DNA of 64,000 nucleotides from contig JAPOVQ010000013.1 of assembly GCA_026708035.1 (NCBI GenBank), forward strand, positions 9,372-73,371. Direction: 5' to 3'. Positions 9,795 to 45,996 of the stretch are shown piece by piece. Source of the stretch: Chloroflexota bacterium (GTDB lineage: Bacteria > Chloroflexota > UBA11872). The number at the start of each line of letters is the position of its first letter. Position 1 is the stretch's first letter. A model generated the notes under the pieces. The model worked only from the letters and a program-made list of their open reading frames with translations, was not told the DNA's origin and did no database searches. A program made the position numbers and the translations under genes.

Positions 9795-9867
9795 CAAACT
9801 GGGTGGGCCGGGTGGGACTCGAACCCACGACCTTCGGATTAAAAGTCCGCTGCTCTACCAACTGAGC
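9795..9867 (-). tRNA. tRNA-Lys (anticodon TTT).
   Basis: Reverse complement reads GGGTCGGTAGCTCAGTTGGTAGAGCAGCGGACTTTTAATCCGAAGGTCGTGGGTTCGAGTCCCACCCGGCCCA. The acceptor stem pairs (one U-G), D arm GCTC/GAGC, anticodon loop CTTTTAA, T arm GTGGG/CCCAC with TTCGAGT loop. Ends +/-1 nt. Confidence 0.85.
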
Positions 9868-9918
9868 TACCGACCCGGCCCAAGCTTAGCGACCGGACGG
9901 TCAAAGGCCGCGGCCTTG

Positions 9919-11924: not shown

Positions 11925-12140
11925 CGGCGCCCGACGCCCTCACCCTTGAGGAGACCCTTGCCTAGTCCCTCCAGTACAGATTTGAGGGCAGGTCGGGTCC
12001 CCTCTCCCTTGATGGGAGAGGGCTAGGGTGAGGGTGATTCGCGGCTTGGGAATGGGATGTCGACCATTCATTCAAAGGTCTCCTCGAGGGAGAGGGTTGG
12101 GGTGAGGGGGTCCCCTGGCACTCCCGCACCGTTTGTCGCC
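11925..12140. repeat. Cluster of palindromic intergenic repeats (module B: CCCCTCACCC..GGGAGAGGG).
   Basis: ggtcccctctcccttgatgggagagggctagggtgaggg and gagggagagggttggggtgagggggtcccc. The same module recurs at ~13085-13215, 25150-25300 and 49915-50055. Confidence 0.7.
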
Positions 12141-12769: not shown

Positions 12770-13260
12770 CTTCCGCGCCCCCCTCTGTCATTCCGGCGAC
12801 GCCTGTCCCCGCGCAGGCGGGGAGCCGGAATCCAAGTCCGGTCAATCCTGCCCGGTGGCCCAGGCTGCGGGCAGCCTGGGAGATACAACCACGGCCAGTC
12901 CCACGTCGCACGCTGTGCGGGCCACCGAGACGCCAACCCAAAGAACCTCGTCGGCCCCACCGTCATTCCGAGAGCAGCGAGGAATCCAGGACGTTCGTCC
13001 ACGGCCGCCGGAAGTGACGCGTCACCCCTCCGTCATTCCCGCGTAGGCGGGAATCTACCCCGAGTTGATCCCCGAGCCGGAATCCCACGTCCGGCTCCCT
13101 CTCCCCACCGTGGGAGAGGGTTGGGGTGAGGGGGCCGCGCTGACTCGTCATTCTGGCGAAGGCCCGAATCCAGTCCGGCTCCCGCTCCCACGGGGAGAGG
13201 GTCGGGGTGAGGGGGACCGTCACCGACCGTTTGCGGCGGCACTTATCACCCGCCGCTATA
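12770..13260. repeat. Dense array of palindromic repeats (modules A, B and C).
   Basis: Module A (GTCATTCC..GGAATCCAG) occurs four times: gtcattccggcgacgcctgtccccgcgcaggcggggagccggaatccaag, cgtcattccgagagcagcgaggaatccagg, ccgtcattcccgcgtaggcgggaatc, cgtcattctggcgaaggcccgaatccag. They are interleaved with module B (ctctccccaccgtgggagagggttggggtgaggggg; ctcccgctcccacggggagagggtcggggtgaggggg) and a partial module C (ggcccaggctgcgggcagcctgggag). Confidence 0.75.
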
Positions 13261-14516: not shown

Positions 14517-14550
14517 CCGCGCCCTTGCGCGGGTTGAGTTGGGAAGGGCG

Positions 14551-14570
14551 GCAAACGGTTTTCCGTTTGC
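14551..14570. terminator. Hairpin gcaaacgg-tttt-ccgtttgc between convergent genes; bidirectional terminator candidate.
   Basis: 8-bp perfect stem with a 4-nt loop, flanked by a T-run on one side (ggttttcc). It lies between the stop of 13305..14516 (+) and the stop of 14611..20073 (-). Confidence 0.45.
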
Positions 14571-14610
14571 GACCTTTACCAAACCGTCCTCAACGAGGGT
14601 ATGAGTTCGC

Positions 14611-17600
14611 CTAAGCCTCGGCGGCGAGCCATGTGTATACGTGATACGGCTGGCGCGTGATGGTGAAAACGTCGAACGCCTGAACTCTCGCGGCGGGGTG
14701 CGCGGTTAGAGCTGCTGCTGCCGCCTCGTGTTGTTGCCGAGTGTAGTGCGCTGGATCACGCCGCCATAGCGGATGGCCAACGACCGCGATTCGTTCTCCA
14801 TCGGGTGCAACGATCCCTGGCAGCAGCCCAAACTTCTCAAGACGGAGGCCAGGTAACGCGTCTTGGAAACCGCCAACGAACGCGCGTGTCTGCTTGTCGG
14901 CCAGTTGCGCCCACCGATCGAAAGAGGGCGCCTTGCCCAGCGCGGCCTCGGTCAGATCGAGCGCGAGACGCCAGTCGAGCCAACCGTGAAGCTGCCGATT
15001 GTCGTAGCTGCGCAGGCAGTCCGGGCAAGCGGCGTCGCAGGTCTCTGCGTGTGCTGGGTCTTCAAACGTCACGCCAATCTCACGGCGCATCACGTGTAAG
15101 ACTCGCCGCATTGACTCGGGTCGCGCGAGGAAGGCTGCGTATCCTGCCCCATTCTCGAGGCGGTCCGCGACGAAGGCGCGCGCGGTCAACCCACGACTGC
15201 CTCGCCTCGGCTGCAGCCCGATCTGAAGCTCTCTGGAATCTACGTCTAGCTCAGACGCGCAAGCGCGGCGTAGCAACTCCGCGAACGACCACAGCGCCGC
15301 TATTCCACCGGGCATCGCGTCGTTGTCGCGGGGGACGAACCCGCCGGGAATCGGAAGCTCGGAGCGATCAAACGCTACAACCAAAGCGTCGGTGCGCTTC
15401 ACGTAGCCGATGGCGCCCTCGTCATCTGGAGTATTCTCTGGCTCTGGAAAAGGCGAATCTCGCCCGTACAGATCAGGCTGCGGGACTATGACCTCACGTC
15501 CATCTTGGTACATCTCGAATCTTTCGCCGTTGTTGTCGTTCACGACAAAGACGTCAGCCTGTGGATATCGAGTAACGGTGACCATGCCAACCGCAAATGA
15601 TTCGTCATCCTCAGATGTGATTCCTAGCTGCGGCGAAGGCAGTAGTGGACCGCGCTCGGTGTAGTCGTCATAGTCCCTCGGGGCGTACGTCGTGCGGAAT
15701 CCACGAGGCTGGAAAAGTTTGAACCGATTTATGTCGTCGCCATTGCAGACGACGCAACTTCCTTGGTGCTCTCCCTCAACATCCTCAACAATTGACTCGC
15801 AATTGGCACATTGGGCAATTCGCAGGGGCGTACCCAGCGGATTGATGGGGTATGGACTCTGCCCCTGAAACCCCCACGCAGCGAACCCCGCGCAGACATG
15901 TATCTCCTTGTCTCGGAGAACCTCTGCGCCGGGTGCGAAGTCCGAGATCGCCATTTCGAGATCGCGCTGAGCAACAATGGCGCGATCTTGCTCCCGCAGA
16001 CTGCGCGGCTGGTCGCGGTAGAGATCGCGTGAGCGCGTGGGGAATCCAAACATCGGCAGCACGCCGGCCGAGGCCAGACGCTCGCTCAACTCCTGCTGCG
16101 TGTAATTCGGGTTATCGATCGCGGCATCGATCGCACGCACTAGATCCGTACGCAGCCACGGCGCAAGCTGATTCCGCTCGCCGGGGTCTAGTCCAGTGAA
16201 CGCCGTAATCCCCTCGACGATAGAGTCAATCTCATGGGAGTCGCGCAACCACGCCGCGACGGAGGCGCGGTAGGCGGACTTCCAGCCGTCCACACGCCCA
16301 AAGGCGCCGTGAATGCTGTCCCGGCCGGTTCGCGGACGCTCATGCGGCGGCAGATTCCGAAACGCCCGACGCAGGCACTCCGTGGCCACCACGCGGCGGC
16401 TGATTTGGGGCTGCCGCAGGTCCAGGTAGGGATACGGAGGCGGCAGGCCTGCCATGCGCTTCGGGTGGTTGAAATGGAAGTCGTCGTGCGCGCGGTCGCG
16501 GCACAGCGTCAGCGCGTAGGCGAACGGCTGGCCAGTCCGGCCGGCCCGCCCAACGCGCTGCTGGTAGTTGAAGCGCTCGGGCGGCATGTTGGCCATGAGC
16601 ACCGACTCTAGCGACCCAATGTCGACACCCACTTCCATCGTGGTCGTCACGCTCAGCGCGTCGATGCCATGGGTCAGCGGGTTCTCACGCGGTGGATCGA
16701 GACGCGCTCCTTTGAACCACCGCTGCCGCTGGCGCTGAACCGCCAGCGGACGAGTCTGCCCGGTTAACTCCTCGACCCGGAGCCGGCGTGGGCGATCATT
16801 GCGGGCCAGCCAGCCGTAGTAGTCGTCGAATCCATGCTCTCCAGGCCTGTCTTGCAGGCTCGTCGAGAGACAGGCGCCATTCGTACACACGCCGGCACTG
16901 GCGTGCAGGTGGGCGCGGGCGCACGTCCGGCATTCCCAAACGGGCGCGTCCGGCCGCGTGCGCACGACTGCGAACGGGGCGTTCAGGTCGTCCAGTGGCA
17001 AGCGCCAGTGCGCATCGACAACACCTGCGGTTCGCAAGCCTGTCTTGACAGCCTCCCAAAGGTCATTCGCCTCGACGCCGTGCGCGTCGGCAATGGCTGA
17101 TACGTAGTCCTGCAGCACTCTTGGTGCGTTCGGCGAAGGCGGCCAACGGGATCCTGGGCGCCGCCCGGCCAGTCCACAAATGCGAATCGCGCCGAGGACC
17201 AACTGTTCCGCATACTCGCCGCGCAACGGGATATCTGAAATGGGAATTGTGGTCGGCGCGAGATACCCGAGGCGCGCGGATTCCAAGTCGCGGCTCGCCC
17301 TGCCAAACAGGACGTCGGCGGCGTGAACTGCAAGGCGCTCGAGGTGTTCATCGTTGGCCCGCCCACGCAACTCCTGGGAGTCGATTGGCTCCCATTCAAC
17401 TTGCGGCGGGTCGTGGATTCGCCACCACGGCTGGCGGTTCCATTCCTGCACCGAGGCGCCGGGACCCGCCGGGTTCACGCCAAGGCGTACCAGGCGATCT
17501 TGCAAGGCCAGCAATAGGTCACCCCAGGCGCGGCCCGACGGCCGTGCCTGCTCCCGCGCTTCAAACTCGCCAATCAGGCGCTCGTGTTCAGGATCGGCCA

Positions 17601-20073
17601 CACCGCGAGCGCGCAGGAGATAGGCCACCCAAACTTCTTGGTGCAGCCGTTGCAGGCGGCCTGCGACTGTGGCCTCGGACGAGGCAAGCGACTTGCCGTC
17701 TGCTGCTCGCCGCAGGATCTCCGCAGGGGAGGCAAACTCCGCCAACTCCGTGCATATGAGTTGACGCACGAGGTCGCGGAAGTGGTTCAACTCCAGTCCC
17801 GCAGCCGTGGCTGCGGCATCCGCACGGCTGTCTGTAAAGACGATCGTTCGCGACGGTTCGTCTTCGGAACCCAAGCTGGCGAGCAAGCGGTCCGTGATGA
17901 TCTGGCCAGTAACCGCGACCCGGGTCGTGTGCGCTCGGACCGGCGAGCGGACGACGCCGCGGAAGAACAGCCGAGGGTCACGATTCCATCCTCTCGATTG
18001 ACAATGGGGGCAAGATTCGGGCAGTGCTGGTGCCCGATGCTTGCCGCTGCGGGATTGCGACGGAACGTTGAACATTGTTCCTGTTGCGCTCCCGACGGCG
18101 CGTGGCTGGAGCAGCCCCGTACGGTGACTGTACGCGGCAGGCACGAAACTGAACGTGGCAGAACTCGTCGCCCCAGGCGGCGTATGCGTCCAGTCTTTGA
18201 TGTGCTGTGCACCGCGCCGCGGCCAATACCACATGTAGTCGCCCCACTTACGCCGGTGCACTGGCGCAACATCCCACTCGGCGAGCTCGGTCGGTCCCGG
18301 ACCGAGGTACCAACACAGCTCGTTGTTCCCCACAGCAGGCGGCCGGACCGCAAACCCGCCCAGGAAAGTCTCGCCACACTGATCGCAGCAAAGGAGTTCA
18401 AGCACCCGGCTTCCGCAGGCGCACGTATGGGTTGGTCGCGCAAACAGCTTTCCGATGCGGCGGTCGGGCGAGCGCCAGCGATCGTCAACCGCCGGGCACT
18501 CGGGGTTGCTGCACGCCCAGAGCCCACGAATCGTCCGCACAAACATGTGCGCGCGGAAGGTCGGCTCGCCCCGCCGTGCCTTGTCCCTTGCGACGGCGGC
18601 GAGCACGGCGTCCAGCGCTTGGTCTTTTTCAGCCGTTGCCGGCGCATCGAATAAACGCTCGTCGACCTCGACTCGCGTAGTTGGCTGCGGTGCGCCCGAT
18701 TCGTCAAGGCACGCGCTGGCCAGTGCGGCGCGAAGGTCGTCGCGCTCAAGCGCCTGCCGTAGGCGCAGGTCGGTCGCAAGCGAAGCATCCGCGTGATCAA
18801 GCTCGCCGTAGGTCGCCCGAGAAAGCGGCTGATTCGGTCTGATCTCGCTTGGCTTGCCAGGAATGATCGCAAACGTCTCGCGCGGTACGCCGAAGAACTG
18901 TTCGAGAAACCCGCGCCCCGCATTGTCTTGAGCCAGGGACGCGCTTGTCGCGACGCAGCGCAACTGCGGTGAATTGGGAGCGAGCCCCAGGCGACGCAAC
19001 ATGTTCCGGATGACTAGCGCCACTTCGCTGCCTTGCGTGCCTCGGTAGAGATGCAGCTCGTCAACCACTAACGTGAACGTGTGATCGACGCTCTGGGCGA
19101 GCCAGGCTGCGGTCTGCTCGAATAGCGGTTCCTCGCGGTGGCGCATGAGCATGACGTTGAGCATGGAGAAGTTCGTGACTAGGATGTCTGGCGGATCCGC
19201 CACCATGTCCCACCGCGTGAGCAACTCCCCTTCGCGGGGATCGGGAAACTGAACGCGAGTCGAGCGGTCAAGCTGGACAATAGAGTCACATTCATGTTCC
19301 ATTGAGCGAAGCGCTTCCGCCGCCTCGCGAACGCTTGGATGACTGTTCAGCCTTGGACGGTCGCCAGCGCCGAGCGTCACGCCGGTGTACCGGCCAAAGT
19401 AGAGGCGCCGTGAACCCTCGTCCCGCAGGCGCGATACGGCTGACCGCAAGCGCGAAATCTGATCCTCAACCAGCGCGTTGGTTGGATACAGGATCATGGC
19501 CCGCATGGCCGCTGGTCGCTCCGCGCTCGACCTAACGCTCCGCCACCTACCGCCGCTTTCCCGCCACCAGCGATGTTCGTCACGGTCGTTGGGCCACGCG
19601 CGCGACTCCGCTAGCAGCCGGGCGAAGATGGGAAGTAGGAAGCACTCAGTCTTGCCGGAGCCGGTACCCGAAGTGACGGCGGCGTTGCGTTGTGACGCAC
19701 CATCCCGTAGCAGCGTGGACAGCGCCTGGACTTGATGCTCGCGCAAACGGAAGTGCCCGTCCTCACTAAACAGCGCAGCGCCAAGGAGATCGGCGGTCTC
19801 GCGATCAGTGCCTATCGAAGCGCAAGCATCGAAGATGGAAGTGGTGGATGGGTAGGACAGGACAGGCTCGATGAGCGGATCGGTGAACACCGTGCCAGGG
19901 CGCTCCAAGAGCTCGCGCCGCTCGTGCAGCATCGCGTCGTCTCGCAGCCAGAGCGCCGTGTCGTAGTAGCGCAGGTAGCTGTCGCGGATGTCCTGATAAA
20001 GCGCGGCGGGCCCGCCGCGGCTGCGCATCGCGTTGGTCAAATCGCGACTCCATTCGACTGCAGGCGAGTCCAC
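14611..20073 (-). CDS. Giant (1820 aa) DEXH-box helicase with a central Zn-ribbon and a C-terminal DUF1998/MrfA-like Cys cluster. DruE-like (Druantia) defense helicase.
   Basis: Motif [17 protein letters not shown], motif [19 protein letters not shown], internal [20 protein letters not shown], helicase-C motifs [39 protein letters not shown], and C-terminal [31 protein letters not shown]. Its start overlaps the upstream gene by 37 nt. Confidence 0.65.
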
Positions 20074-23000
20074 AGGCCCGCCGCAATCTCCGGCGGAACG
20101 CTTGCGTAGCGGTGCGTTCCATCATCGAACCGCTGCGGCGGGGAACCGCTGCAGAGCATGGCAACGCGCTCGTACAGCCCGGGCAGCTGCGCTCCCAGCC
20201 GTACCGCCAGCTCGCGTCGCTCGGGGTCGTAGGCGACCAGTGGCGCGCCGGACCTCACCGACTCCAAGTGCTTGACGAGCCGCGCCGAACCGAGCCGTGC
20301 CTCGGTTCGGCCGTTCGTGATCGGTGGGACAAAGGCGTATGTGCGCGGGAAGGAACGCGTGCGAATCGCGCCAGGCGCGGTGGATCGATCTGTCCGCGTC
20401 CAACGGCCAGATGCCGCATTGAACCGTTCGATGTCGTCATGAGGCAGTCGCCACTTGGGGAGCGTCTCAACGAGCCTGGCGATGTGCGGCAACCCAGACA
20501 GGAGCCGCGCCGCAACATTGTCGACTGCCCGCACCTCGAACCCAAGCGCAGCGCTTGACGATTCGGTTGCGAGGCAGAGGTCGGCGTGCTCCAGCCCAGT
20601 CACACGGACGCGCGGCGGAACGCCGTCCACAGGCTCGACATCGAACGAACCGCCAAGTTCTTCGACATCTCCTCGCAACTGGTCGAGCAGCCGGTCGGAC
20701 CTAAACCCCGTCAGGAAGGCGTCACCATAGGGCAATCCTGCCAGCGCCGGAGGGGCGACTGACCAGCGCTCCACCGCCAGCGTCTCGCGGTTTCGCTCGA
20801 TCTCTATGTACCCCAACCCCGCCAACTGCCGCGCAAACTCGGAGGTAAACCACGGCGAATCGCCGATGTGACGGGCAAGCGAGGCGAGTGCGGCCCACGT
20901 GCCTTCCCCAATCAGGGAAATGGCGTCGAGGACTATCCCAAAGTTTGTCCGCGACTGATCGCTCATGGATTCTGCTATGACTCGCGGTAAGGCACGCGCC
21001 GGACGCTCGGACCTGCTTTGGTTCCCACCCACGTCGCGCACTCGCCGCCTTCGCCGAGTTGGCCTCGTGCGTTGCCACTGCGTCAGTCCGCAGCGCTTGC
21101 ACCGACCAAGCCGGCGCCGGTTCTCATTGGCCACGCCTTCACCGAGGTCCCAGTAGTGGGCACCGCTCCGAACGAAACAGCTTGGCGCGGCACCGCTTCG
21201 CGCCGTCGTTCCTTGAGTTGGCGCCTCGTCGCGATCTTCGGCATGGTGCGCTGGCTCTAGAGTTCGCGACGGAAGCAGTCCGCCTCGCTCGGTCACGCGC
21301 TCGAGCTCGGCGACGCCGCCAGCCACAACAGGTTCGCCCGGCTCAGTGGACCCGCGCATGGCAGAAACCGTGGCCCAGCTGGGATCGCCGAAAACGGCCC
21401 GACGCAGCCCGGCCGCTTGGTCGAGAGGACGCGCGGCATTGGCCGAGCGCAGACGAACCGTCGCCGTCGCGACAGGGCGGCTGGAACGCTTGCCTGATTT
21501 ACCGACTCCATAGGCCGCCACACGATACTCCCCGGCGGCCGGATTGGACTCGCCCAGACCGGCCACGCCCACAGCCTCGAACCGGCCCAGTGCAATCTCG
21601 CCTCCATCAGCGCCCGATGCTTCGAGAATTGGCTGTACGACCAAATCGATCGATGCGTTGGTATCCGTCGAGAACGACACTTCCGGGGGCAGTGCCGCGT
21701 GCCACGATTGCCGTTCGGGCAGGGCCAGGCCGCCGCTGAACGCGATTGCGGCCGATGACGTGGGCACGAGCGGAAGCAGGTCATCCGACAACTCGTCCTC
21801 CGGGACTGCTGCCACCGAGACGTTCCGGATGAGAGTCCACCCTTCTGGGCAGCCGGACATCGATTTGGTTTCGAATCGTTCACATCCGGGACGAGCGTAC
21901 TTCTCCAAGAACCCCATCACTTCCGATTCGAGACCACTACGTACGAGCAGGGCGTGGTTCGCCAAAAGGGAGATTCGGTCGATCTCGACGTAGCAATGAC
22001 GCTCCTGGTCGAAGGCGAGCATGACAATCTGCTTGGCGCGACGCTCCAACTCGATGTCGCCGTCGCGATCGGAGAGCTTTACGTTGGCAATCAGCACGTC
22101 GGGAATGGATATGCGTGCGTCTTCGCTGAACCCGCACCAGCCGTCCGGGATCGATTCGGCCAGCGTGAGCCAGTCGCCGCAGGTCTCGAATGCCGCGCGT
22201 GCCGCCTCACTGGCATCCGACAGCGTGACGGTTTGGCCGGGCAGCGCCTCGGCGGCGCGGAGGCGCAGCCTCAAATCGAGCCTTCGGCTGGGGTACGTCC
22301 GCACGTCAGCAACCAGACGGAGGGGAAATCGCCTCTGGCCTGGCGCAGTGCTTTGGGCGGCCACGCCGTCCCATGCCGCAAGCTCATCGCATGCGATGGC
22401 CGCGATTTGTATTCGGATTTCCCCTCTTTCGTGGACATGCTCCGATGGTCCCCAGAGTCGGCGGAGATTGCTCGACGCTTGGCTGCTCGAACGACCGATC
22501 CACTCATCGAGCAACTGCTCCATCTCCTCCACGGAAAATGACCCGGGCGCGAGTTCGTTTTCCGCGAACAGTTCAGACAAACACTGGCGATCCTCGTCGC
22601 GCATAAGCGCCTGGGAGATGGGAATGCCGACGTGTACGCGCGAGTCGAAAGCAAACGCGGTGGGCCGCCCAAGCCGCCCGTCTCGCTTGACGAGAAATGC
22701 GTTCAGCGAGTCCCAGAATAGGTGCGACCACTTTCTGAAGTCTCGCTGGAGCTTCTTCCCGAGCGGGTGGTCGATCTCGACCTCTACGGCTTGCGCAAGT
22801 CGACCGTAGTAGTTGGTTGCCCTGAATTTGGCATCGCTTTGCATCGCCTCAGCCGCGAGGGTGAAGAATGCCAGCAGCCCCATGAAAGGCGGCGTGTCTC
22901 CGTCCTCTGCTTCTTCCCATTCTTCGAGCAGGGAGGCATGGGACTTGAAGGTGTTGGCCCGCCAGTCGATGTCCAGCGTCCTGCGGACGGCCCGGCGAAA

Positions 23001-23174
23001 GGCCGCCTTGGGATCCGAAATGCTCGCGTCGATTTGCGCCGCGAGTTCTTGGAGCCTTTCGGCGTCCAAATCCAGATACAGCGGGCGATTGCGCCACTCT
23101 CCGCTTAGGTAGTGCCTCGCAATTGCGTCATTCCATAACCAGTAGTCGCCAAACCGGTCTTCTTCCGCCCTCAT
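20037..23174 (-). CDS. Large (~1045 aa) protein with no recognisable domain, first gene of the helicase operon. DruH-like partner (inference).
   Basis: Track ORF 20037..23306. I prefer the start [14 protein letters not shown] at 23174 because GGAGGG sits 7 nt upstream and the alternative N-terminus is an Arg-rich read-through. No motifs recognised by eye. Translationally coupled to the helicase gene. Confidence 0.5.
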
Positions 23175-23271
23175 CGGCCATCCCTCCCCGCCGAATCCTA
23201 GCTGCTGCACGGCGCGGCGGCGTGTCGAACCAGGGCGCCTGATCGGCGGCGGTGCCTTGCGATTTCGGGTC

Positions 23272-25071
23272 CTACCCCGGCGTCTCGTAGGCGAAGTCCC
23301 ACCCATCCCACTTGCGCAGGGGCTTGATGGTGCGTGGGAGGTCGGGCTCGCCGGCGGCTTGCCAGGCCGCGATTTCGTCCTGGTGACCCAGGCGTTTCAG
23401 GCCGCTCCACATGGGCTGGTGGTTCGCCCGCCCGCAGCCGCCCGCGGCGTCCCAGAAGAACATGTGTCCCGCCCCGGCCTCGTAGACCGTCGACGCCCGA
23501 CGGCGAAAATCCTCCGGCGATTGGTGCCGCGGCATCAGGTTCGGCGCCAGCACGCAGTCGGTCCCGCGCACCAGGTCCACGAAGAACGCCAGCTGTGACG
23601 GGTCCGTCCATGAGGAGTGGTGGCTGTCGTAGACCGGCTCGGAGCTATAGGGAATCAGCGTGTCGATCAATCCCTCGTCCATCCACGCGCGCAGGTCGAT
23701 GCCGTCATGCAGGTTCTCCTGCTCGGTGGCCGCCACCACCGCGCCCACGTCGATGCGCGACCCCCGCGCCTCGCCAGCCTCGTCCATCGCCGCGCGCACC
23801 TCGCGCATGAAGCCCGTCAGCGTGCGCGCGCGGTAGGTCAGCCAGCGTGGATCGTCCGCCGCCAGCTCCCGCGGGTCGAGTCGGTATTCCTGCTGGAATC
23901 CTTCCACCACCGGCGGCTCGTACTCCACCAGCGGCATGCGGCGGTTGAACAGCAGGCACACGCCGTCCACCGGCCGCTCCACGATCTCCCCCAGCAGTGA
24001 GATCACGAACTCCCGCACCGCGGGATAGCTGTAGGCCATGCGCGGCGTGCGGTTGCCCGCCCGATCCTCGCCGCGGCACTCGGGATGCCGGTCGAAGAAG
24101 ACCTCCCCCAGGCTCGCGCCGTCCAGCGGCGGCGGGTATTTGAACCCCGCGACGCGGTAGCACGCGTGGAACTCCATGCCCAGCGCGTGCGTGTGCGCCA
24201 GCGCCACGTCGAACGGGTCCACGCCCTGCTGCTGGAAGTCGCGCCAGCTTTCCGCGTGCATGCGATCGCCGCGCCGTCCGAAGTCCTCCTGGCCCTCCAT
24301 GATCTCGGCGCGGGCGATGCGGCTGAAGAACCGCGTGCGGTCGCCCCCGCCGGCTTCCCAGTAGATGCGGGATACGTCGGTGTCGCGGTAAGGCTCGATC
24401 TCGCGTCGCACCTCTTCCTCGGTGGTGAGCCGGAACAGGTAGTGCGGCCCGTGTGAGTCGTTGTGGGCGAACAGGCGCCGCGTATCCGTCCGCGCCTGGT
24501 CCGCCTGCCAAATCTCGAGTTCGTCGTCGGTCAGCGGTACCAGCTTGACGTAGGCCACCCGCGCCGCCGGACCGCTGAACGACCCCGGCGCGTTGCCCGG
24601 CGCCACTCGCCGGACCAGCTGGCAGATATCGAGGCTCCGGTCCGTCAGGTCGGCGATCTTCCAGAACATCTCCGCCACTCCGCCGCCGGGCCAATCCGGC
24701 AGCAGCCGGGTTTGCAGCGGGGACAGGTCCAGCGTCAGGAGGGAATAGGTGTCCTCGCTGCTGAGCTTGACCGGCACGGCCACCGTGGCGGTGTCGTCGG
24801 TGCACTTGAAGTGCGGCACGATGCCCACCGACACCGCGTGCCAGCCGCTCGCGCGCAGCGGAAAGCTCACCGCAGGCGCGGCGGTCTCCGGCCCCGCCGT
24901 GATCATGGTGCCCGCCACGTCGTCGGCCTCGAATGACATGGTTCGCCAGTGCCCCCGCTTGCCCGTCGCGCTCAGCGCCGAGGCCGGCTCGCAGCGGTCC
25001 AGGTCCGTGCGGTATTGCGGCGGGCTGCTGAGCCAGCCGTCGGCAAAGAGATCGGTCGTGGCTGTCGTCAT
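23272..25071 (-). CDS. Hydrolase-like protein, paralog 2 of the three-member family (tandem with 25322..27103).
   Basis: 599 aa. Shares with the neighbour YVKLVPLTDDELE..RTDTRRLFAHNDSHGPHYLFRL, IYWEAGGGD, GDRMHAESWRDFQQQGVDPFDVA, YSYPAVREFVISLLGEIVERPVDGVCLLFNRRMPLVEYEPP and HMFFWDAAGGCGRANHQPMW. Confidence 0.4.
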   Translation of the reverse strand: MTTATTDLFADGWLSSPPQYRTDLDRCEPASALSATGKRGHWRTMSFEADDVAGTMITAGPETAAPAVSFPLRASGWHAVSVGIVPHFKCTDDTATVAVPVKLSSEDTYSLLTLDLSPLQTRLLPDWPGGGVAEMFWKIADLTDRSLDICQLVRRVAPGNAPGSFSGPAARVAYVKLVPLTDDELEIWQADQARTDTRRLFAHNDSHGPHYLFRLTTEEEVRREIEPYRDTDVSRIYWEAGGGDRTRFFSRIARAEIMEGQEDFGRRGDRMHAESWRDFQQQGVDPFDVALAHTHALGMEFHACYRVAGFKYPPPLDGASLGEVFFDRHPECRGEDRAGNRTPRMAYSYPAVREFVISLLGEIVERPVDGVCLLFNRRMPLVEYEPPVVEGFQQEYRLDPRELAADDPRWLTYRARTLTGFMREVRAAMDEAGEARGSRIDVGAVVAATEQENLHDGIDLRAWMDEGLIDTLIPYSSEPVYDSHHSSWTDPSQLAFFVDLVRGTDCVLAPNLMPRHQSPEDFRRRASTVYEAGAGHMFFWDAAGGCGRANHQPMWSGLKRLGHQDEIAAWQAAGEPDLPRTIKPLRKWDGWDFAYETPG

Positions 25072-25084
25072 GCCTCCCGCCTCC

Positions 25085-25310
25085 TATCGCTCATGCCGCT
25101 GTCCGCGCATCGTCCGGCCGGGTAGGGGGGCTTCGCGAACCGCCCTCCTCTCCCTCGATGGGCGAAGGTCGTCCGGCCCCCTCTCCCGGGGGGAGAGGGT
25201 TGGGGTGAGGGGACGCCCGTGTTCGCGCTCTCGGAAACCGCTGCAGCCGCGACCCGACTCCCGTCCCTCGATAGGAGAGGGCTGAAGCGAGGGTGATCCG
25301 GCACACAACC
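25085..25310. repeat. Intergenic palindromic repeats (module B, two copies) between the tandem paralogs.
   Basis: ccccctctcccggggggagagggttggggtgaggggacgcc and cgtccctcgataggagagggctgaagcgagggtgatcc. Confidence 0.65.
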
Positions 25311-25321
25311 GAGGGCCGCCA

Positions 25322-27103
25322 TCATCCCGGCGTCGTGTAGGACAGATCCCACTCGTCCAGCACGTCCACGTCGTGTGCGGTGGGTTGCAGCGGAGGCTCC
25401 CCCGCCGCGCGCCAGGCCTCGATCTCCTCGCGATGTCCCAGACGTCGCAGCGCATTCCACATCGCGCCGAAGTTCGCCCGGCCGGCGCCGCCCGCCGAAT
25501 CCCAGAAGAACAGGTGATCGGCGCCCGCGCCGTAGATGCCCGCCGCCTGACGGCGCACCTCCTCGGGCGGGCGGTGTCGCGGCAGCATCCCCGGCGCCAG
25601 CACGCAGTCCGTCCCGCGCACCAGGTCCACGAAGTACGCCAGATCCTCCGGATCCTCCCAGGACTCCTCGCGCGGCTCACCCATCGGCACCGAGGTGAAG
25701 GGAATCAGCGTGTCGACGATGCCTTCCTCGACCCAGGCTCCCAGGTCAATTGCATGCTGCAGGTTCTCCTGCTCGCTGCTCACCACCACGGCGGACACGC
25801 CAAGCCGTTTGCCGTGCACCGCGCCCATCTCATCCATCGCCTGCCGCACCTCGCGCATGAACTGGGTTAGCTCGCGCGCGCGGAACCGCAGCCAGCGCTC
25901 GTCGTCCGCCGGCAGCGCGTGCGGATCGAGGCCGTATTCATCCTTGAAGCCCGCCACCACCGGCGGCTCGTATTCCACCAGCGGCAGGCGCCGGTTGTAG
26001 AGCAGGCACACCCCGTCGATGGGCCGTTCGGCCATCTCGCGCAGCAGCGAAACGATGTAGGCCCGCACCTCGGGATAGGAATAGGCGATGCGCGGCGTCG
26101 TCTGGCCGTTGCGGTCCACCCCGCGCCATTCCGGGTGCGCTGCGGCGAAGGTGTCGCCCACGTTGATGTAGTCCATAGGCGGCGGATACAGGAAGCCGGC
26201 GACCCGGTACGACGCGTGAATCTCCAACCCGACGTCGTGACAGTGCTCGATGGCCACATCCAGCGGATCCACGCCCAGCTCGCGGAACTCCCGCCAACTC
26301 TCGGCGTGCAACCGGTCGCCCACGCGGGCGAAATCCTCGGCCTCGTCGAACGTGCACCAGCGCGCGATCTTGCTGAAGTAGTAGCTGATGTCGCCTTCGC
26401 CGGCTTCCCAATACATGCGGGAGAAGTCGGTGTGACGATAGGGCTCGATTTCGCGCCGGATGCCCTCGGCATCGTTCAATCGCCACAGGTAGTGCGGTCC
26501 GTGCGCGTCCTGGTGGGCGAAGAGTGTGCGGGTGTCGGTGCGCTGTCGCTCGGCCTGCGCCTCGGCCACCTCAGCGTCGGACAAGGGCGTCAGCTTGACA
26601 TAAGCAATACGCACGATCTCCGACCGCCACGCGCCAACCTCGTCAACCGGCGCGGTCTGCCACTGCGGCTGCCCCAGCACCAGTTGCTGACCCGTCAGGT
26701 CCGCCGTGCGCCAATACAGCTCCACGAGTTGCAGGTCGTGCCCGACCTCTGGATGCGCCGGCTGCGCCGTCAGCATCGTCGGCGTCGCGTCGCCGCTCAG
26801 CCGCGCCGTCACGCATAGCCGCGCGCTCTCGTAGCCCGGCGGCGGCATCACCCCCAGCGATACCGCGTGCCATCCGGCCGCGTTCAGGTCCAGCGTCACG
26901 TCCGGCGCGGCCGTCTCGGGGCCCGCCAGCAGCATCCGGCCGCTCATGTCGCCGGCGGTGTACGACATCGCGCGCCAGCGGTGAAACGCCGGCACCGAGC
27001 CCACGGCGTCCGGCGGCTGCACGTCGCTCAGGTCGGTGATGTAGACCGGGTCGTTGACCAACCCGCGGTCGGCGATGCCGTCTGCCATATACACCTCACC
27101 CAC
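25322..27103 (-). CDS. Hydrolase-like protein, paralog 3 (tandem duplicate of 23272..25071).
   Basis: 593 aa, collinear with paralog 2: YVKLTPLSDAEVAEAQAERQRTDTRTLFAHQDAHGPHYLWRL, MYWEAGEGD, HLFFWDSAGGAGRANFGAMW. Confidence 0.4.
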   Translation of the reverse strand: MGEVYMADGIADRGLVNDPVYITDLSDVQPPDAVGSVPAFHRWRAMSYTAGDMSGRMLLAGPETAAPDVTLDLNAAGWHAVSLGVMPPPGYESARLCVTARLSGDATPTMLTAQPAHPEVGHDLQLVELYWRTADLTGQQLVLGQPQWQTAPVDEVGAWRSEIVRIAYVKLTPLSDAEVAEAQAERQRTDTRTLFAHQDAHGPHYLWRLNDAEGIRREIEPYRHTDFSRMYWEAGEGDISYYFSKIARWCTFDEAEDFARVGDRLHAESWREFRELGVDPLDVAIEHCHDVGLEIHASYRVAGFLYPPPMDYINVGDTFAAAHPEWRGVDRNGQTTPRIAYSYPEVRAYIVSLLREMAERPIDGVCLLYNRRLPLVEYEPPVVAGFKDEYGLDPHALPADDERWLRFRARELTQFMREVRQAMDEMGAVHGKRLGVSAVVVSSEQENLQHAIDLGAWVEEGIVDTLIPFTSVPMGEPREESWEDPEDLAYFVDLVRGTDCVLAPGMLPRHRPPEEVRRQAAGIYGAGADHLFFWDSAGGAGRANFGAMWNALRRLGHREEIEAWRAAGEPPLQPTAHDVDVLDEWDLSYTTPG

Positions 27104-31613: not shown

Positions 31614-31775
31614 TCACCGTCGCCGATCGCACCTTTAGGTGCGAACATGCACCATGCCGAGCCGAGTCTCTACGTCGGCTCCCGCTTCACCACGGTGAAG
31701 CAAGGCGAACTGTCGAGGGGTCTGGTTGCCGCAATGCTTTGGCAACTGAACATTGACCGGGAGGAGTTTTTGACC
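31614..31775 (+). pseudogene. HicA-like toxin remnant (C-terminal part), N-terminally truncated at the repeat insertion and fused in-frame to hicB.
   Basis: The frame upstream of HicB reads ..HHAEPSLYVGSRFTTVKQGELSRGLVAAMLWQLNIDREEF. This resembles HicA C-termini (..GSHxxYxHP..RvTVp.HsGdLppGlfrkILrdtGLTEEDF). The frame is closed by TAG at ~31611-13, exactly at the end of the module C repeat. Confidence 0.3.
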
Positions 31776-32204
31776 ATGACCTACGCCTACCCCTGCGAGC
31801 TCACGCCGGTGGACGACGGCAGCCTGATTGCCACCTTTCCGGATGTCCCGGAAGCCATTTCCGGCGGCGCGGACCGTTCCGAAGCCCTGGCGATGGCCGA
31901 GGACGCCCTCGCCGCGGCCCTGGCCGGCTACGTGCATGAAAAGCGGGAGATCCCCGCGCCCAGCGAAGCGGTAGAAGGTCAGGCGTTGGTCCCCGTGTCT
32001 CCGGTCGTGGCCGCCAAGCTCGCGCTGTATTCGGCCATGCGAACGCAGCGCATCACCAAGGTCGAACTCGCCCGCCGGCTGGGCATCAGCGAGTCGGCCG
32101 CGCGCAAGCTCACCAACCCGGACCATCGCTCCCACGTCAGCCAGGTCCACAAGGCGCTCAGGGCCCTAGGGCGCAGCCTGAGGGTCGAAGTCACCGCCGC
32201 CTGA
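31776..32204 (+). CDS. hicB: HicB-family antitoxin (type II toxin-antitoxin).
   Basis: Track ORF 31647..32204 trimmed to MTYAYPCELTPVDDGSLIATFPDVPEAISGGADRSEALAMAEDALAAALAGYVHEKREIPAPSE (HicB RNase-H-like fold N-domain) plus a C-terminal HTH region. GGGAGGAG RBS 9 nt upstream. Confidence 0.65.
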   Translation: MTYAYPCELTPVDDGSLIATFPDVPEAISGGADRSEALAMAEDALAAALAGYVHEKREIPAPSEAVEGQALVPVSPVVAAKLALYSAMRTQRITKVELARRLGISESAARKLTNPDHRSHVSQVHKALRALGRSLRVEVTAA

Positions 32205-32366
32205 CGGCGAAGAGCCGCCGGGAATCACCTGACGCTTTACTTTGCGTTCGAGCGCCAGATCGAATGATCTGCGGCCAGAATTCCAGCGCTCTTGTCATTA
32301 GCAGGTCTTACATGCTGTCATTGCTATGCCATAATCCACGACACCAACTTGATCCGCGAGACGACA

Positions 32367-32702
32367 ATGGCATTGCTCGCAGAGCGCCTGGGGCAGGTAG
32401 CAACGGAACTGCGTCTCGATCAGGCTGACTTGGCGCGAATCCTTGGGGCGAGTCCCCGCACCGTGGCGCGCTGGCTCCAGGAAGAAACTGCGCCGCGAAG
32501 AGATACGCGCGAGCGCATACTGGAGCTCGTCGCGGTGTTGAACGCCTTGTCGAAGACCGTCCACGGGCAGGCCGCCTACGACTGGCTCTATTCACCGATT
32601 CCGGCTCTCGAGCATCGAAAGCCCGCCGATCTCCTCGCCCAAGGCCGCTACCGCGAAGTATTGGGCGCGATCGACGCGTTGGCCGAAGGGGTGTTTGTCT
32701 AG
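32367..32702 (+). CDS. Xre-family/DUF2384 antitoxin (MbcA/ParS-like) partner of the RES toxin.
   Basis: Track ORF 32292..32702 trimmed to MALLAERLGQVATELRLDQADLARILGASPRTVARWLQEE... (HTH) and a C-terminal AAYDWLYSPIPALEHRKPADLLAQGRYREVLGAIDALAEGV typical of DUF2384. Confidence 0.65.
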   Translation: MALLAERLGQVATELRLDQADLARILGASPRTVARWLQEETAPRRDTRERILELVAVLNALSKTVHGQAAYDWLYSPIPALEHRKPADLLAQGRYREVLGAIDALAEGVFV

Positions 32703-32707
32703 CCGTC

Positions 32708-33247
32708 GTGTTGGACCCGCGGATCGTCGAACGCATCGATTCGATCGAGCCAGTTGGTTTTGGCGGCCGCGCCTATCGGCACGTTTCCCCGACACACTCG
32801 TCCATGTCGGGCGAAGGCGCCCGGCTACACGGCGGACGGTGGAACCCACCAAGGAGCTTTCCCACGCTCTACCTGGCGCTGGACCGTCCCACGATGTTGG
32901 CGGAACTGAAGCGTACGGCGCTCAGATTCGGAATTCCGCCCGAGAGTTTGCTGCCGCGAGCGGTCTATCGCTTCTACATAGCGCTCCACCATTGTCTCGA
33001 CCTGCGGGATGCGAGCGGCCGGGAGGCTGTGGGTCTGAGTCTCGATGCCATTCGCAGCGACGACTTGCGGCGATGTCGAAAGGTCGCAACGGCGGCGCAC
33101 TACCTCGGTCTCGAAGGATTGCTGGCGCCGTCCGCCACGGGCGCGGGTTTCACGATCGCCATCTTCACGGACCGGCTCCGGCCGGACTCATGCATAGAGC
33201 CGGGCGATGCCGAGATTCTGAACGCGCTGCCCCAACCCTGGACCTGA
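32708..33247 (+). CDS. RES-domain toxin (MbcT/Res-type, putative NAD+-targeting).
   Basis: GGRAYRHVSPTHSSMSGEGARLHGGRWNPPRSFPTLYLALDRPTMLAEL fits the R..E..S domain layout. GTG start 5 nt after the antitoxin stop. Confidence 0.65.
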   Translation: MLDPRIVERIDSIEPVGFGGRAYRHVSPTHSSMSGEGARLHGGRWNPPRSFPTLYLALDRPTMLAELKRTALRFGIPPESLLPRAVYRFYIALHHCLDLRDASGREAVGLSLDAIRSDDLRRCRKVATAAHYLGLEGLLAPSATGAGFTIAIFTDRLRPDSCIEPGDAEILNALPQPWT

Positions 33248-40267: not shown

Positions 40268-42082
40268 ATGCCTGACGAAAGGAATAGGATGCCCGTACAA
40301 CGCTATTCGGTAAACCAATATCCAATCGAGACCTTACTCACCTGGATCAAGACGGATGAGATCGCTATCCCAGAGATCCAAAGACCATTTGTTTGGAACG
40401 CGGCTAAGGTGAGGGACTTCATAGACTCTCTCTACAACGGCTATCCCGTCGGTTATCTGATCGCATGGCGGAACCACGATGTTCGACTGAAGGACGGAAC
40501 TCAGTCGGCAGGCAAGCGCATATTGATCGACGGTCAGCAGCGCGTAACCGCGTTACTGGCTGCACTGCTTGGCGAGCAAGTAGTCACCAAGGCCTACAAG
40601 CGCACCCGAGTTTCCATAGCTTTTCACCCCGGTGAAGAACGCTTCGAAGTAACGAATGCGGCAATTCGCCGCGACCGCGGATGGATCGCCGATATCTCTA
40701 CCATGTTCTCGTCAGACGTTAAGATATTACAGATATTAGATCAATATTGTAACGCGAATCCAGCGGCAGACCGGGACAAATCCTACGAGTGCCTTGAGAA
40801 GCTTCGCGGGATTACCAGTAACCATCTCGGCCTAATCGAGTTGAACTCGGATCTTGAGGTGGAGACCGTGGCGGAGATCTTCGTGCGCATCAACCGCCAG
40901 GGAGTGACGCTCAATGCGGCCGATTTCGCAATGTCCAAGATGGCGGCAACCGAACAGCACAACGGCCACCTGCTACGCAAGTGCATCGATTACTTCTGCC
41001 ACCTTGCAGTTGCTCCGGAAGCGTACTCGAATCTAGCGAACGATGGAGACTTTGCCTCCACTGAGTACTTTCGTACATTGGAGTGGCTGAAGCACGAAAA
41101 AGACGACCTTTATGATCCCTCATATACAGATATGCTGCGGGTCGCATTCACATCACGGTTCAAGCGCGGAAGCTTAGAAGATTTGGTTGCACTACTCTCG
41201 GGCCGTAATTTCGAGACCCGAGTCTTTGAAGAAGCAACGGCGCAGAAGTCATTCGAGACACTTGAGAATGGCATCCTGAGCTATATGAACGAGACTAACT
41301 TCAAGCGGTTTACTATGATCCTACGCTCTGCTGGATTCGTAGATTCGTCTTTAATACGGTCCCACAATACTGTAAATTTTGCTTACATACTCTATCTGAC
41401 ACTACGTGAACAGCAGGAAGCTCCTCATCGGATAGAACGGCTCGTTCGCCGTTGGTTTGTGATGTCAATCCTGACTGGCCGGTATACTGGCTCTCCTGAA
41501 ACCGCCTTCGGCGTCGATATTGGCAACATTGATTCGCAAGGCGCAGCTGCCTATCTTGATACCATCGAACGCGGTGAGCTCTCAAGCGCGTTCTGGGATG
41601 TTGGTCTGCCTCAACAGATGGATTCGTCTGTGGCTAGCAGCCCTTATGTCAACGTTTACCTTGCCAGTCAAATAAGAGCACAGGACAAGGGATTTCTCTC
41701 GCGCGACATAACCGTTCGTGACTTAATCGAAGGTCAACTGCACATTCATCATGTTTTCCCCCGAAACTACTTGAGGCAGCATGGGTTGCAACGAAGGCGG
41801 TATAATCAGATTGCGAATTATGTAGTGATGCAGCCGGAAATCAACATCGCAATTGGAGACAATGCTCCATCGGCATATTTTTCCGAGCTATGGCACCAAT
41901 GTAACAATGGGCAGACTCGGTACGGAGGGATTACTGACGCCGATGAACTGAAAGACAATCTTGGTTCTCACTGCATCCCTGGCGGGATGGATTCGGCTAC
42001 AGCTGGAGACTATGACCGGTTTCTTATAGAACGGCGAAGGTTAATGGCTGGAAAGATGCATGATTACTATGTGGCTCTATAG
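40268..42082 (+). CDS. GmrSD-like type IV restriction endonuclease: DUF262 (ParB-like NTPase/nuclease) N-domain plus DUF1524 (His-Me/HNH-like) C-domain.
   Basis: DUF262 signature ...[33 protein letters not shown]...[13 protein letters not shown] (DGQQR). C-terminal ...[16 protein letters not shown]... (DUF1524 His-Me finger). The gene and its flanks (40125..42310) are markedly AT-richer than the rest of the window. Confidence 0.75.
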
Positions 42083-44316: not shown

Positions 44317-45996
44317 ATGGAACTAATCCTGGCGATCCTAGTCTTGAGCGCCATCGCCGCTCTCGTCGGAGCCATCATCAGGCAGATTTCATTCAATAGG
44401 GCGGCACGGACCTTCGACGTTCCCGCCCTTGTCCGCCAGGGCTGGCGAATAGAAAGCGAAACTGACCAGCACGTAGTGCTCGTCAAAGGGCATCGCGTCA
44501 ACCACGTCCTTCACCTGCTTCTGTGCATTCCGACCGTCGGTCTATGGGTAGTCGTCTGGGTCCTCCTGGCCATCACCGGTGGCGAGCAGCGGAAAGTGAT
44601 ACCAAATCGCGACCCAGAAGTCGACCCCACCACTCGATCGCGCACAGTGCCGACGACTCGATCCAGCAGACCAATCGCCGATCGATTGGACAAACCTGAG
44701 ACTGCTGGATCAAAAGCGCGCTCGACAGCGTCACCAGGCGAACACTCACAAGTCGGATCTGCGGCAAAGTGGCTAACCACTAGCTTTACGGGGCTAATCG
44801 TCCTAGTAGTCCTAATCGCGTTCATTGTGGGTGCCGTGGCCGACAATCAGGCTTCCAGAATCCAACCTTCTTACACCCCGAACTTTCTCGCTAGCACACC
44901 TACTCCGTCCGCCCCGCGTGCTCTACTTCTCCGTCTCACGCCTACTCCAGCCTCTCGTTCAGCTCCCACCTCAACACCCGCACTCTTGCGCACGCCCACC
45001 CCAACCCAAAGCCCACCTCCGAGTCCTACGCCTACGATAACTCCCACCCCCGTACCTACCCCGACTCCCACTCCGCGGCCCACTCCTACCCCTACTCCCG
45101 CGCCCATCGAGATGGCACTTGCCGAACTCCTAGACGAATATGACCAAAACAAAGTGCGCGCCAATACCCAACTGCGATACCAGCAGAATGGCAAACGAGA
45201 AGTAGCTACCTCCGGCTTTATTTCTCGTATCGAAGAACTTTATAGTGTTCTCACGCCCACGCAGGAAGGGTACTCAGCTCAAGAGCTGCGTTGCTATTAC
45301 GCCAATACAGAAGCAGCATTGCACATTACAAAAGGTGAATCCGTTTCAGTGATCGGTAGAATCCGAGGGGTAGGTGAATATTCGGGTGTATTGCACATGT
45401 ATGCATGTAAATTGAAGGGACTGGAATTGGAGTCATATCCCAAAGTATCTATCAGATCGCTTCGCGAAAATGTTGTGCAGGTATTTTGCGTTCAGGAAGC
45501 ATCTGTCTTCGGTGTCGTAAGGCTCTCGTCGGAAAACAGAGGAACAGGTGTGATTATAGATGCCGAAGAGGGCACAATATTAACCGTGCATCATGTAGTC
45601 GCAGACGAAAACGACTGCAAAAGGGTGGAGATTTCGTTACCCGGATCTGCACAACGAATCCCGGTGGCGATTCGCAAGCACTGTGCATCGATCGACAGGG
45701 CCCGGCTACAGGTATCTCCCCGAGTCTTCGGGTCACGGCCAATTGAAGCCATCTACAGATCGTCTGCTCCTGCTCAGATTGATGAAGAGGTCCACTTTTG
45801 GGGATACGGTCCTGGCGCACTACGAATGGAAACCGGACTGGTACAAGAGGCCTGGGGTGATAACTTCGTCATTGACGCGTATGCAGTGCTAGGAGATTCA
45901 GGATCCCCGGTGTTTGATGAGAATGGGCACTTACTTGGAACGATCTCCCGAGGTAACCGATCTGACCGAACGGTGTTTACGGGCGATGAGTGCTAG
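44317..45996 (+). CDS. Membrane-anchored trypsin-like (S1) serine protease with a Pro/Thr-rich linker, in a low-GC insertion.
   Basis: N-terminal TM helices ([21 protein letters not shown]; [23 protein letters not shown]), a PT linker ([70 protein letters not shown]), and a protease domain with TVHHVV (His), IDRARL (Asp) and [19 protein letters not shown] (Ser). GC falls to roughly 45-55% across 43900..46060. Confidence 0.65.

Follow-up and report, generated by a model that had tools for sequence, protein, structure and literature searches.

In this study we analysed a stretch of 64,000 nucleotides (nt) from a Chloroflexota bacterium (contig JAPOVQ010000013.1, about 67% G+C), hereafter the window, and describe a pair of genes on its minus strand which very probably is a real module of the Druantia lineage of anti-phage systems. 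The first gene, gene A (20037..23174), encodes a protein of 1045 amino acids (aa). The second, gene B (14611..20073), encodes a superfamily 2 (SF2) helicase of the YprA/MrfA family with 1820 aa in its longest form. Both genes read in the same direction and are tightly juxtaposed. We call them druF, in a long form in which DruF and DruL are fused, and druE, of the Druantia II/IV lineage. A preliminary description made from the sequence alone had proposed a two-gene operon here, and both open reading frames (ORFs) were indeed found on the minus strand. Neither is a chance ORF, since both give full-length matches to hidden Markov models (HMMs), with E = 0 for gene B and E = 9e-167 for gene A. We consider it likely that a self-contained two-gene Druantia module, which is of the type II/IV lineage and has the DruF-DruL fusion gene followed by druE, was acquired here by horizontal transfer.

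Two extents had been considered for gene A. We retain the ATG at 23174 as its start, because a ribosome-binding site (GGGGAGGGA) is located 6 nt upstream, because a 'hypothetical protein' of 1045 aa from a Chloroflexi bacterium metagenome-assembled genome (NCBI/ENA; scaffold of 557,581 bp) is 100% identical to the product, and because a gene that began with the ATG at 23306 would extend into the 3' end of the GHL10 gene that precedes it. The longest ORF (20037-23306, 1089 aa from its first ATG) was therefore set aside. The spacer upstream of druF (23175..23271, minus strand, 97 nt) holds the ribosome-binding site. No sigma-70-like promoter was found upstream of druF, so the gene may be co-transcribed with the upstream GHL10 genes. 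The start of druE is ambiguous among three positions: a GTG at 20073, used in one public gene call, gives 1820 aa and an overlap of 37 nt with gene A; a TTG at 20040, with GGAG upstream, gives an overlap of 4 nt; and an ATG at 20028, used in a second public gene call, gives 1805 aa and a spacer of 8 nt. The 37-nt overlap that had been described thus holds only for the GTG start, and the junction between the genes is tight whichever start is used.

Our identification of gene B is based on the PADLOC profiles, which were run at E <= 0.1 on genes A and B, at E <= 0.01 on the 10 flanking ORFs and at E <= 1e-5 on the 34 other proteins of the window. The best match is to DruE2 (PDLC00015) with 1558.6 bits, aligning residues 22-1818 to positions 5-1882 of a profile of 1887, followed by DruE4 with 1451 bits and DruE1 with 576 bits. 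Pfam recognises DEAD, Helicase_C and MZB in gene B. The motifs that had been read from the sequence beforehand, namely GSGKT, DELH, QQRVGRAGR, an internal zinc ribbon and a C-terminal Cys cluster, are all present. All features of the two genes given here lie on the minus strand. The RecA1 ATPase core (19051..19662) extends from motif I, GSGKT (residues 138-142; 19648-19662), to motif II, DELH (residues 338-341; 19051-19062), and the RecA2/Helicase_C domain (16531..16665; PF00271, residues 1137-1181) contains QQRVGRAGR at 1171-1179, with Q1171-R1179 invariant. We further find five zinc sites: a Cys-rich cluster (C521, C526, C551, C553, C563 and C566; 18376..18513), the Cys pair C688/C691, two zinc ribbons (C1048, C1051, C1063 and C1068; 16870..16932, and C1422, C1425, C1440 and C1443; 15745..15810) and the MZB domain, formerly DUF1998 (residues 1598-1687; 15013..15282). 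The MZB match (PF09369, E = 2.2e-5) scores 25.5 bits against a cut-off of 24.2 and holds the C-terminal Cys cluster, in agreement with the DUF1998-like module suggested earlier; its zinc ligands are H1675, C1679, C1683 and C1686 (CDAACPDCL, 1679-1687). The ligands of all five sites are invariant in 12 pair-linked DruE homologues, across which 403 residues are invariant, including motifs I, II, III and VI. The SF2 motor of DruE is thus intact in both its ATPase/helicase motifs and its zinc sites.

The C-terminal domain of DruE (residues 1690-1820; 14614..15006) shows no conserved catalytic constellation. Its only invariant residues are W1701, R1702, L1703, L1705, D1706, R1720, W1721, P1768, L1769, W1770, P1809 and W1815, and what is conserved over the last 120 residues is mostly aromatic or aliphatic, apart from two Arg and one Asp. 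This pattern fits published work on type I/II DruE, whose C-terminal domain is described as 'inactivated Vsr-like' (PMC12458937). An H.K....D (HKD) motif is absent anywhere in DruE, and Pfam gave no PLD match. The solved structures closest to gene B are 9WAE ('Helicase', E = 2.6e-152), then 9TU7 (E = 5.9e-49), which is the type III-A DruE of E. coli, and 6ZNP (E = 5e-8), which is YprA of B. subtilis. The closest of these is a chain of 1970 aa, named 'Helicase' in its 7 entries (9WAE/9WAF/9WDS-9WDY). The family PF27116 (YjiV_N) is found in precomputed Pfam annotations on every pair-linked DruE of the loci L001-L010; our own Pfam scan of gene B did not return it.

Gene A has no match in Pfam or NCBIfam, and in this sense the partner of about 1045 aa is as domain-less as it had been described. 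The long DruF2 models of PADLOC (PDLC00023 and PDLC00016) are nevertheless covered end to end, the former with 555 bits over residues 6-1038 and profile positions 4-1009 of 1011. The DruF2/DruF4 models of about 690 positions match the N-terminal part (DruF4 PDLC00052, 148 bits, residues 9-455), and DruL4 (PDLC00057) matches residues 781-1038 with 67.5 bits. In profile-profile alignments with hhalign, columns 9-501 of the gene A family correspond to the short DruF of Nostoc (probability 99.7%, E = 2.5e-27) and columns 732-1028 to the Nostoc type IV DruL (probability 99.4%, E = 3.5e-21). Because the family aligns to both Nostoc proteins, gene A is a fusion of type IV DruF and DruL, or, equivalently, type IV is its split form. 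Gene A is a single ORF of 1045 aa with no internal stop; DruL is not a separate gene, and the three-gene layout of the PADLOC type IV definition is not seen here. The long-DruF family is large. A HMMER search of 1.84 billion cluster representatives gave 4996 matches at E <= 1e-3, of which 1360 remain at E <= 1e-30, and the top 150 representatives are all full-length fused proteins of about 970-1460 aa, plus one fusion of 2420 aa. Among 36 family members scanned with Pfam, there was one match to MTaX1 and one to DUF7662, and no other. Some DruF-family proteins carry N-terminal additions, namely GmrSD_N and GmrSD_C in P0173 (2420 aa), MTaX1 ('methylase-associated X1') in P0014 (1193 aa) and TPR repeats in P0065 (1463 aa), which may be true fusions or run-ons of the gene calls.

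A structure prediction of gene A had been proposed as a check, and the AlphaFold2 model is confident, with a predicted local distance difference test score (pLDDT) of 85 and a predicted template modelling score (pTM) of 0.85. Fold searches covered the whole protein and residues 1-275. Immunoglobulin (Ig)/FN3-like sandwiches are the only solved relatives among the best 50-60 matches listed, and the family profile gave only weak S-layer Sap domain matches against PDB sequences. The model therefore points to a partner with an apparently new fold. Its N-terminal domain (residues 1-270; 22365..23174) is all-helical and is the most conserved part of the protein, with most of the invariant residues and the motifs NYYGR (121-125) and PTAFAFD..RVHVG.PISQAL (171-190). 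It is followed by a central beta-rich region of FN3/Ig-like sandwiches (residues 280-620, about 340 residues; 21315..22337), a zinc knuckle (C666, H673, C692 and C695, ending in CKRC; 21090..21179), which is invariant in a 10-sequence alignment, and an Arg-rich disordered linker (residues 700-744; 20943..21077), which has 13 R/K versus 4 D/E and a pLDDT below 50 at 706-731. The protein ends with the DruL-like alpha/beta module (residues 745-1045; 20040..20942; pLDDT about 88-98), identified by the DruL4 match and by hhalign and carrying the conserved motif LPGLYER..LCSG. Residues 745-806 may have a winged-helix-like order of helices and strands, as read from the model only.

To describe the relatives of the pair we used six context look-ups on gene A homologues, which gave ten loci (eight non-self and two representing the window's own locus), together with a further eight loci from a genome scan (10-sequence alignment) and one pair locus from a plasmid match. 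In 16 of 16 non-self loci a DruE homologue starts within a few bases of the DruF stop (tblastn). In a close clade, DruF identities of 49-54% are found with DruE identities of 73-74%, and in the remainder 27-35% with 33-47%. This strict adjacency and the co-divergence across phyla show that druF and druE form a unit. The hosts include Chloroflexota/Dehalococcoidia, Acidobacteriota (Bryobacterales), Actinomycetes, a gammaproteobacterial sponge symbiont, alphaproteobacteria (SAR116) and a rhodobacterial mobilizable plasmid. The genes that flank the pair in the window are not kept beside it in other loci, where the neighbours are often defence genes such as HEPN/nucleotidyltransferase, AbiEii, integrase, restriction enzymes, SNF2 helicase and McrB; at L010 the pair stands alone among metabolic genes, as in the window. 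These varied flanks, the diverse phyla and the plasmid occurrence bear out the expectation that the gene pair is co-conserved and mobile. In the window, the G+C content at third codon positions (GC3) of the pair is 0.71-0.72, compared with 0.81-0.92 in the adjacent genes on both sides. This lower GC3 fits a foreign, horizontally acquired pair.

Our searches also covered the enzymes that might accompany the pair. DruG was not matched by genes A and B, by any of the 10 flanking ORFs or by the 34 remaining proteins of the window, and the gap between druF and druE is at most 8 nt. Neither DruM nor a methyltransferase was matched in the flanking ORFs or the other window proteins, and no Dru homologue of any kind was found among the latter. 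A tblastn search of the 64 kb with five C5 methylases and one DruK nuclease returned nothing. The window therefore contains a druF-druE core without a recognisable nuclease, methylase or other effector enzyme. In some relatives the situation is different. DruK, a PD-(D/E)xK nuclease in PADLOC, is found directly after druE in L004 (18495-19553; the same locus as L015), L009 (18488-19672), L013 (18473-19315) and L017 (8953-9801), and all four also have a C5 methylase within 10 kb. Neither gene is present in the available flanks (up to 10 kb) of the window, L001, L010, L011, L014, L007 and L016, the flank of L014 reaching about 0.75 kb downstream of DruE. The sample for these accessory genes is small, at about 14 distinct loci. 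The linkage of DruK and C5 methylase in four of four loci suggests modular evolution, in which a conserved F-E core is optionally extended by both genes in the manner of a restriction system. A further gene arrangement is seen on a mobilizable Alisedimentitalea plasmid (L019; NZ_CP123587.1, 41777-54935), where a long DruF and then DruE are followed, all in one direction, by a 655-aa hypothetical protein with a weak NERD/UvrD-like match, a Dcm methylase and a MvaI/BcnI restriction enzyme.

One could explain the bare pair as an incomplete or decayed type II system, that is, a remnant of druM-druF-druG-druE or of druF-druE-druK with a methylase, which would be inactive or would rely on an enzyme elsewhere in the genome. 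Canonical type II requires DruM and DruG (PMC8565338), neither of which is in the window; DruK and a nearby C5 methylase do occur in the four loci just mentioned; and the region inspected is 64 kb of a scaffold of 557 kb. Neither ORF is, however, truncated or interrupted, all catalytic and zinc-binding residues are conserved, and the top 150 family representatives all have the fused full-length form of gene A. Moreover, the pair is likewise bare, in the flanks available, in its closest relatives (L001, L010, L011 and L014), which have 73-74% DruE identity and represent at least two phyla; this argues that the two-gene form is maintained and is not the result of a one-off loss. We therefore regard decay as rather improbable.

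The preliminary description had placed the locus close to Druantia type III, in which DruH is followed by DruE. The Druantia part of this proposal stands, while the type does not. There is a superficial likeness to DruH-DruE in the order of a domain-less protein of about 1000 aa and a giant DruE. The search for DruH and a type III DruE that had been recommended gave a different answer: gene A has no match to the DruH models at E <= 0.1, and the DruE3 models reach at most 404 bits on gene B, in a partial match to the central helicase region only, against 1558 bits over the full length for DruE2, the best-scoring model. With DruF and DruL matches in place of DruH, a partial DruE3 match and no PLD or HKD motif, the pair is Druantia but not type III; at the sequence level type III is already refuted, and we give it a very small residual probability.

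It had also been suggested that the locus could be an undescribed helicase-based defence system, and a related possibility is membership of DISARM, Dpd, ARMADA or the 'Type IV CoCoNuT' group; we consider these together to be just as improbable as type III. Gene B does give weak partial matches to DpdJ (77 bits), DrmA (33 bits) and BrxH (39 bits), and the inactivated CnuB/McrB-like GTPase encoded by Druantia I/II has led to their regrouping under the name 'Type IV CoCoNuT' (Bell et al. 2025, PMC12458937). The three matches cover generic helicase motifs only, the window scans found no DrmB, DrmC, DrmM, Dpd genes or BrxHII/PglX partner, and DISARM, Dpd and ARMADA were rejected on these grounds. 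Membership of Type IV CoCoNuT was likewise rejected, as the operon lacks an inactivated CnuB/McrB-like GTPase with an extended coiled coil. Since both proteins are matched over their whole length by the existing PADLOC profiles DruF2 and DruE2 and the long-DruF family has thousands of members, the suggestion of an undescribed system has to be abandoned. Least probable of all is a housekeeping repair helicase of the MrfA/YprA (about 750 aa) or Lhr type that happens to lie beside an unrelated gene: it would share the SF2 core and MZB and would account for the weak match to 6ZNP, but this match spans only about 60 residues, the NCBIfam search of gene B gave only sub-threshold helicase models with the repair-helicase models far below their cut-offs, the 1820-aa protein is matched end to end including Druantia-specific regions, no MrfB is present, the helicase is always paired with DruF, and its variable and often defence-rich flanks, plasmid occurrence and foreign GC3 do not resemble the conserved surroundings of a core gene.

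In the wider window, the pair stands as an insertion by itself, surrounded by genes of carbohydrate metabolism. The flanking ORFs encode GHL10 glycosyl-hydrolase-like proteins (two copies), DUF1697, GH116, enolase-superfamily, AhpC-like and MacB/ABC transporter proteins, and the directly flanking genes (glycoside-hydrolase-like, enolase-superfamily and ABC-transporter) have native codon composition. The GHL10-like genes are tandem paralogues at 23272-25071 and 25322-27103, 2050 nt apart with about 74% nucleotide identity, directly upstream of druF and on the same strand. The stops of druE and of the enolase-superfamily gene are convergent, and an 8-bp stem-loop, GCAAACGG-AAAA-CCGTTTGC (14549..14571), lies between them. 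That it acts as a terminator is only a guess, as no T-run follows it. At the borders of the pair, neither a target-site duplication nor a flanking inverted repeat was found. Short palindromic intergenic repeats resembling repetitive extragenic palindromic elements or miniature inverted-repeat transposable elements, with the core GGGAGAGGGTTGGGGTGAGGGG in 5-6 copies, are present at 12005-12115, 13092-13214 and 25171-25300, and none lies at the borders of the pair.

The items on which the notion of a defence island had been based are real: besides these repeats there are a tRNA-Lys (9802-9876), a HicB-like antitoxin gene (31647-32204), an Xre/ParS-RES toxin-antitoxin pair (32292-32702 and 32708-33247) with a lowered GC3 of 0.70-0.74, and a type IV restriction enzyme gene with a GmrSD_N domain (40268-42082), whose GC3 is 0.55 compared with about 0.87 in its neighbours. 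The framing as an island was overstated, as these genes are not adjacent to the pair and at least 8 kb separate it from any other defence-type gene. The GmrSD gene is a separate single-gene insertion, and its protein probably accounts for the PADLOC HEC-05 match in our window scan. Two window proteins match RT-Protease_XI models of PADLOC, probably through their protease domain. At 44317-45996, in a stretch of low GC (0.55), there is a 559-aa ORF with a C-terminal trypsin-like peptidase domain.

How the pair might act can be considered from work on other types. In one study of type III, DruE dimers unwind 3'-to-5' from exposed single-stranded DNA (ssDNA), the PLD is dispensable for defence and no nuclease activity was seen (10.64898/2026.05.13.724758). 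A second group assigns 3'-5' exonuclease activity to DruH and describes a helicase-nuclease DruE that is recruited to duplex-ssDNA junctions (10.64898/2026.05.13.724313). The loading sites in type III are exposed ssDNA or 5'-overhang junctions (10.64898/2026.05.13.724313, 10.64898/2026.05.13.724758). A mycobacterial system blocks phage DNA circularisation and replication, needs contact between DruH and DruE and is triggered by a phage tail protein. By analogy with MrfA/YprA and type III DruE, we suggest that the DruE of the window may be an ATP-driven 3'-to-5' DNA translocase/helicase, which would load on exposed ssDNA or duplex-ssDNA junctions of phage replication or recombination intermediates and unwind them. 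The unwinding itself would be the interference step and would block replication or circularisation of the phage genome. DruF-L could sense infection and gate or recruit DruE, working via its helical N-domain, Ig-like domains, zinc knuckle, Arg-rich linker and C-terminal module. As no methylase is present, self and non-self would be discriminated by DNA structure or a phage cue and not by methylation. Any destruction of DNA would be left to host nucleases and, in some relatives, to the add-on DruK. We offer this specific mechanism, with sensing and gating by DruF-L and unwinding by DruE as interference, tentatively and would place it somewhat short of probable. A stronger version is more doubtful still, although it can be entertained: DruF-L and DruE might be a complete defence system without nuclease or methylase, acting purely by helicase remodelling of ssDNA-containing intermediates, with DruK and the C5 methylase as an optional add-on. 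In that case DruF-L would represent a novel class of infection sensor, as no solved structure is related to the conserved helical domain at its N-terminus.

There are several points which weigh against our interpretation. Firstly, we found no experimental proof in the literature of defence by type II or IV Druantia, and we infer the anti-phage activity of the pair from family membership and context. Secondly, a methylase or nuclease may be encoded elsewhere in the 557-kb scaffold or in the rest of the genome. Thirdly, the role of DruF as a sensor or regulator is a guess, made because no catalytic fold is recognisable in it, and a small enzymatic domain that matches only weakly could have escaped notice below the best 50-60 fold matches that were listed. 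In addition, the extrapolation from type III is shaky, as the preprints conflict on the nuclease activity of DruE and DruH, and there is no dense defence island around the pair in the window.

Few helicase-based anti-phage families are as widespread as Druantia. The mechanistic work that we found in the literature concerns types I and III only; types II and IV make up about 40% of the loci in one survey (10.64898/2026.05.13.724313), and we found no experimental test of them. The locus described here is a clean minimal example of the type II/IV branch, with two genes, no methylase and no recognisable nuclease. It would be well suited to a direct test of whether the helicase activity of DruE alone, gated by its partner, is enough for immunity; the dispensability of the PLD in one type III study hints that the helicase alone may suffice (10.64898/2026.05.13.724758). 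Annotation tools that require every named gene, like the published PADLOC definition of type I, may miss pairs of this kind, because the fused DruF-L/DruE lack genes named in the type II and IV definitions. The interest of the pair thus lies in the absence of a recognisable effector enzyme, in the apparently new fold of the partner and in its use as a minimal test system.

Comparing the pair with known systems, we begin with the repair helicase. The window DruE and MrfA/YprA (6ZNP) have in common the SF2 DEXH core and the C-terminal MZB zinc domain, which are the ancestral module of the whole family. The window DruE differs in more than 1000 extra residues, four more zinc clusters, an obligate DruF partner and a mobile or defence-type context without MrfB. 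Type III also has two genes, in which a large domain-less partner is followed by a YprA-family DruE with zinc motifs and MZB, and the helicase cores are homologous (9TU7). The window DruE probably shares the ssDNA- or junction-triggered 3'-to-5' unwinding of type III, as judged by analogy. In contrast to type III, the window partner is DruF-L and not DruH, and its DruE lacks both of the two PLD domains of type III DruE (PMC12458937) and, at 1820 aa, falls some 290 residues short of the type III-A chain solved for E. coli (2108 aa).

The remaining types are II, defined as DruM-DruF-DruG-DruE (Doron et al. 2018, as summarised in PMC8565338 and PMC12458937), and IV, defined as DruE and DruF with a new DruL and without DruM or DruG (Payne et al. 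2021, PMC8565338). A DruE phylogeny of 566 loci recovers the same four types, with I-IV at 14, 22, 46 and 18% (10.64898/2026.05.13.724313). In a PADLOC survey, 168 type IV instances were found in 11 phyla and complete type II only in Proteobacteria (PMC8565338). The window locus resembles type II in that its DruE2-type helicase and its long DruF2 are the top profiles for both proteins, end to end, and in that its DruE C-terminus, without catalytic conservation, fits the inactivated Vsr-like domain. It differs from type II in lacking DruM and DruG, in having no detected CnuB/McrB-like GTPase homologue and in its Chloroflexota host. With type IV it shares the protein content, as gene A corresponds to DruF over its first roughly 500 residues and to DruL over its last roughly 300, DruE is present and DruM and DruG are absent. 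It also shares with type IV the occurrence outside Proteobacteria and, at about 8.6 kb, the size of the published Streptomyces pratensis example. In the window, however, DruF and DruL are one polypeptide. A useful reference is the Nostoc plasmid locus, found with gene A, with the order dcm, DruF (664 aa), DruL (302 aa) and DruE (1862 aa), which is a textbook type IV apart from the dcm directly upstream; its DruL scores 79.7 bits on DruL4, and its DruE scores 1979 bits on DruE4 versus 1580 on DruE2, the reverse of the window DruE (DruE2 1558, DruE4 1451). Existing PADLOC profiles thus recognise both proteins fully, and the pair belongs to a large family that is already known and is not a new system. 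The locus contains the proteins of type IV, its best-scoring profiles are those of type II, and its layout of two genes is not described by the type II and IV definitions quoted in PMC8565338.

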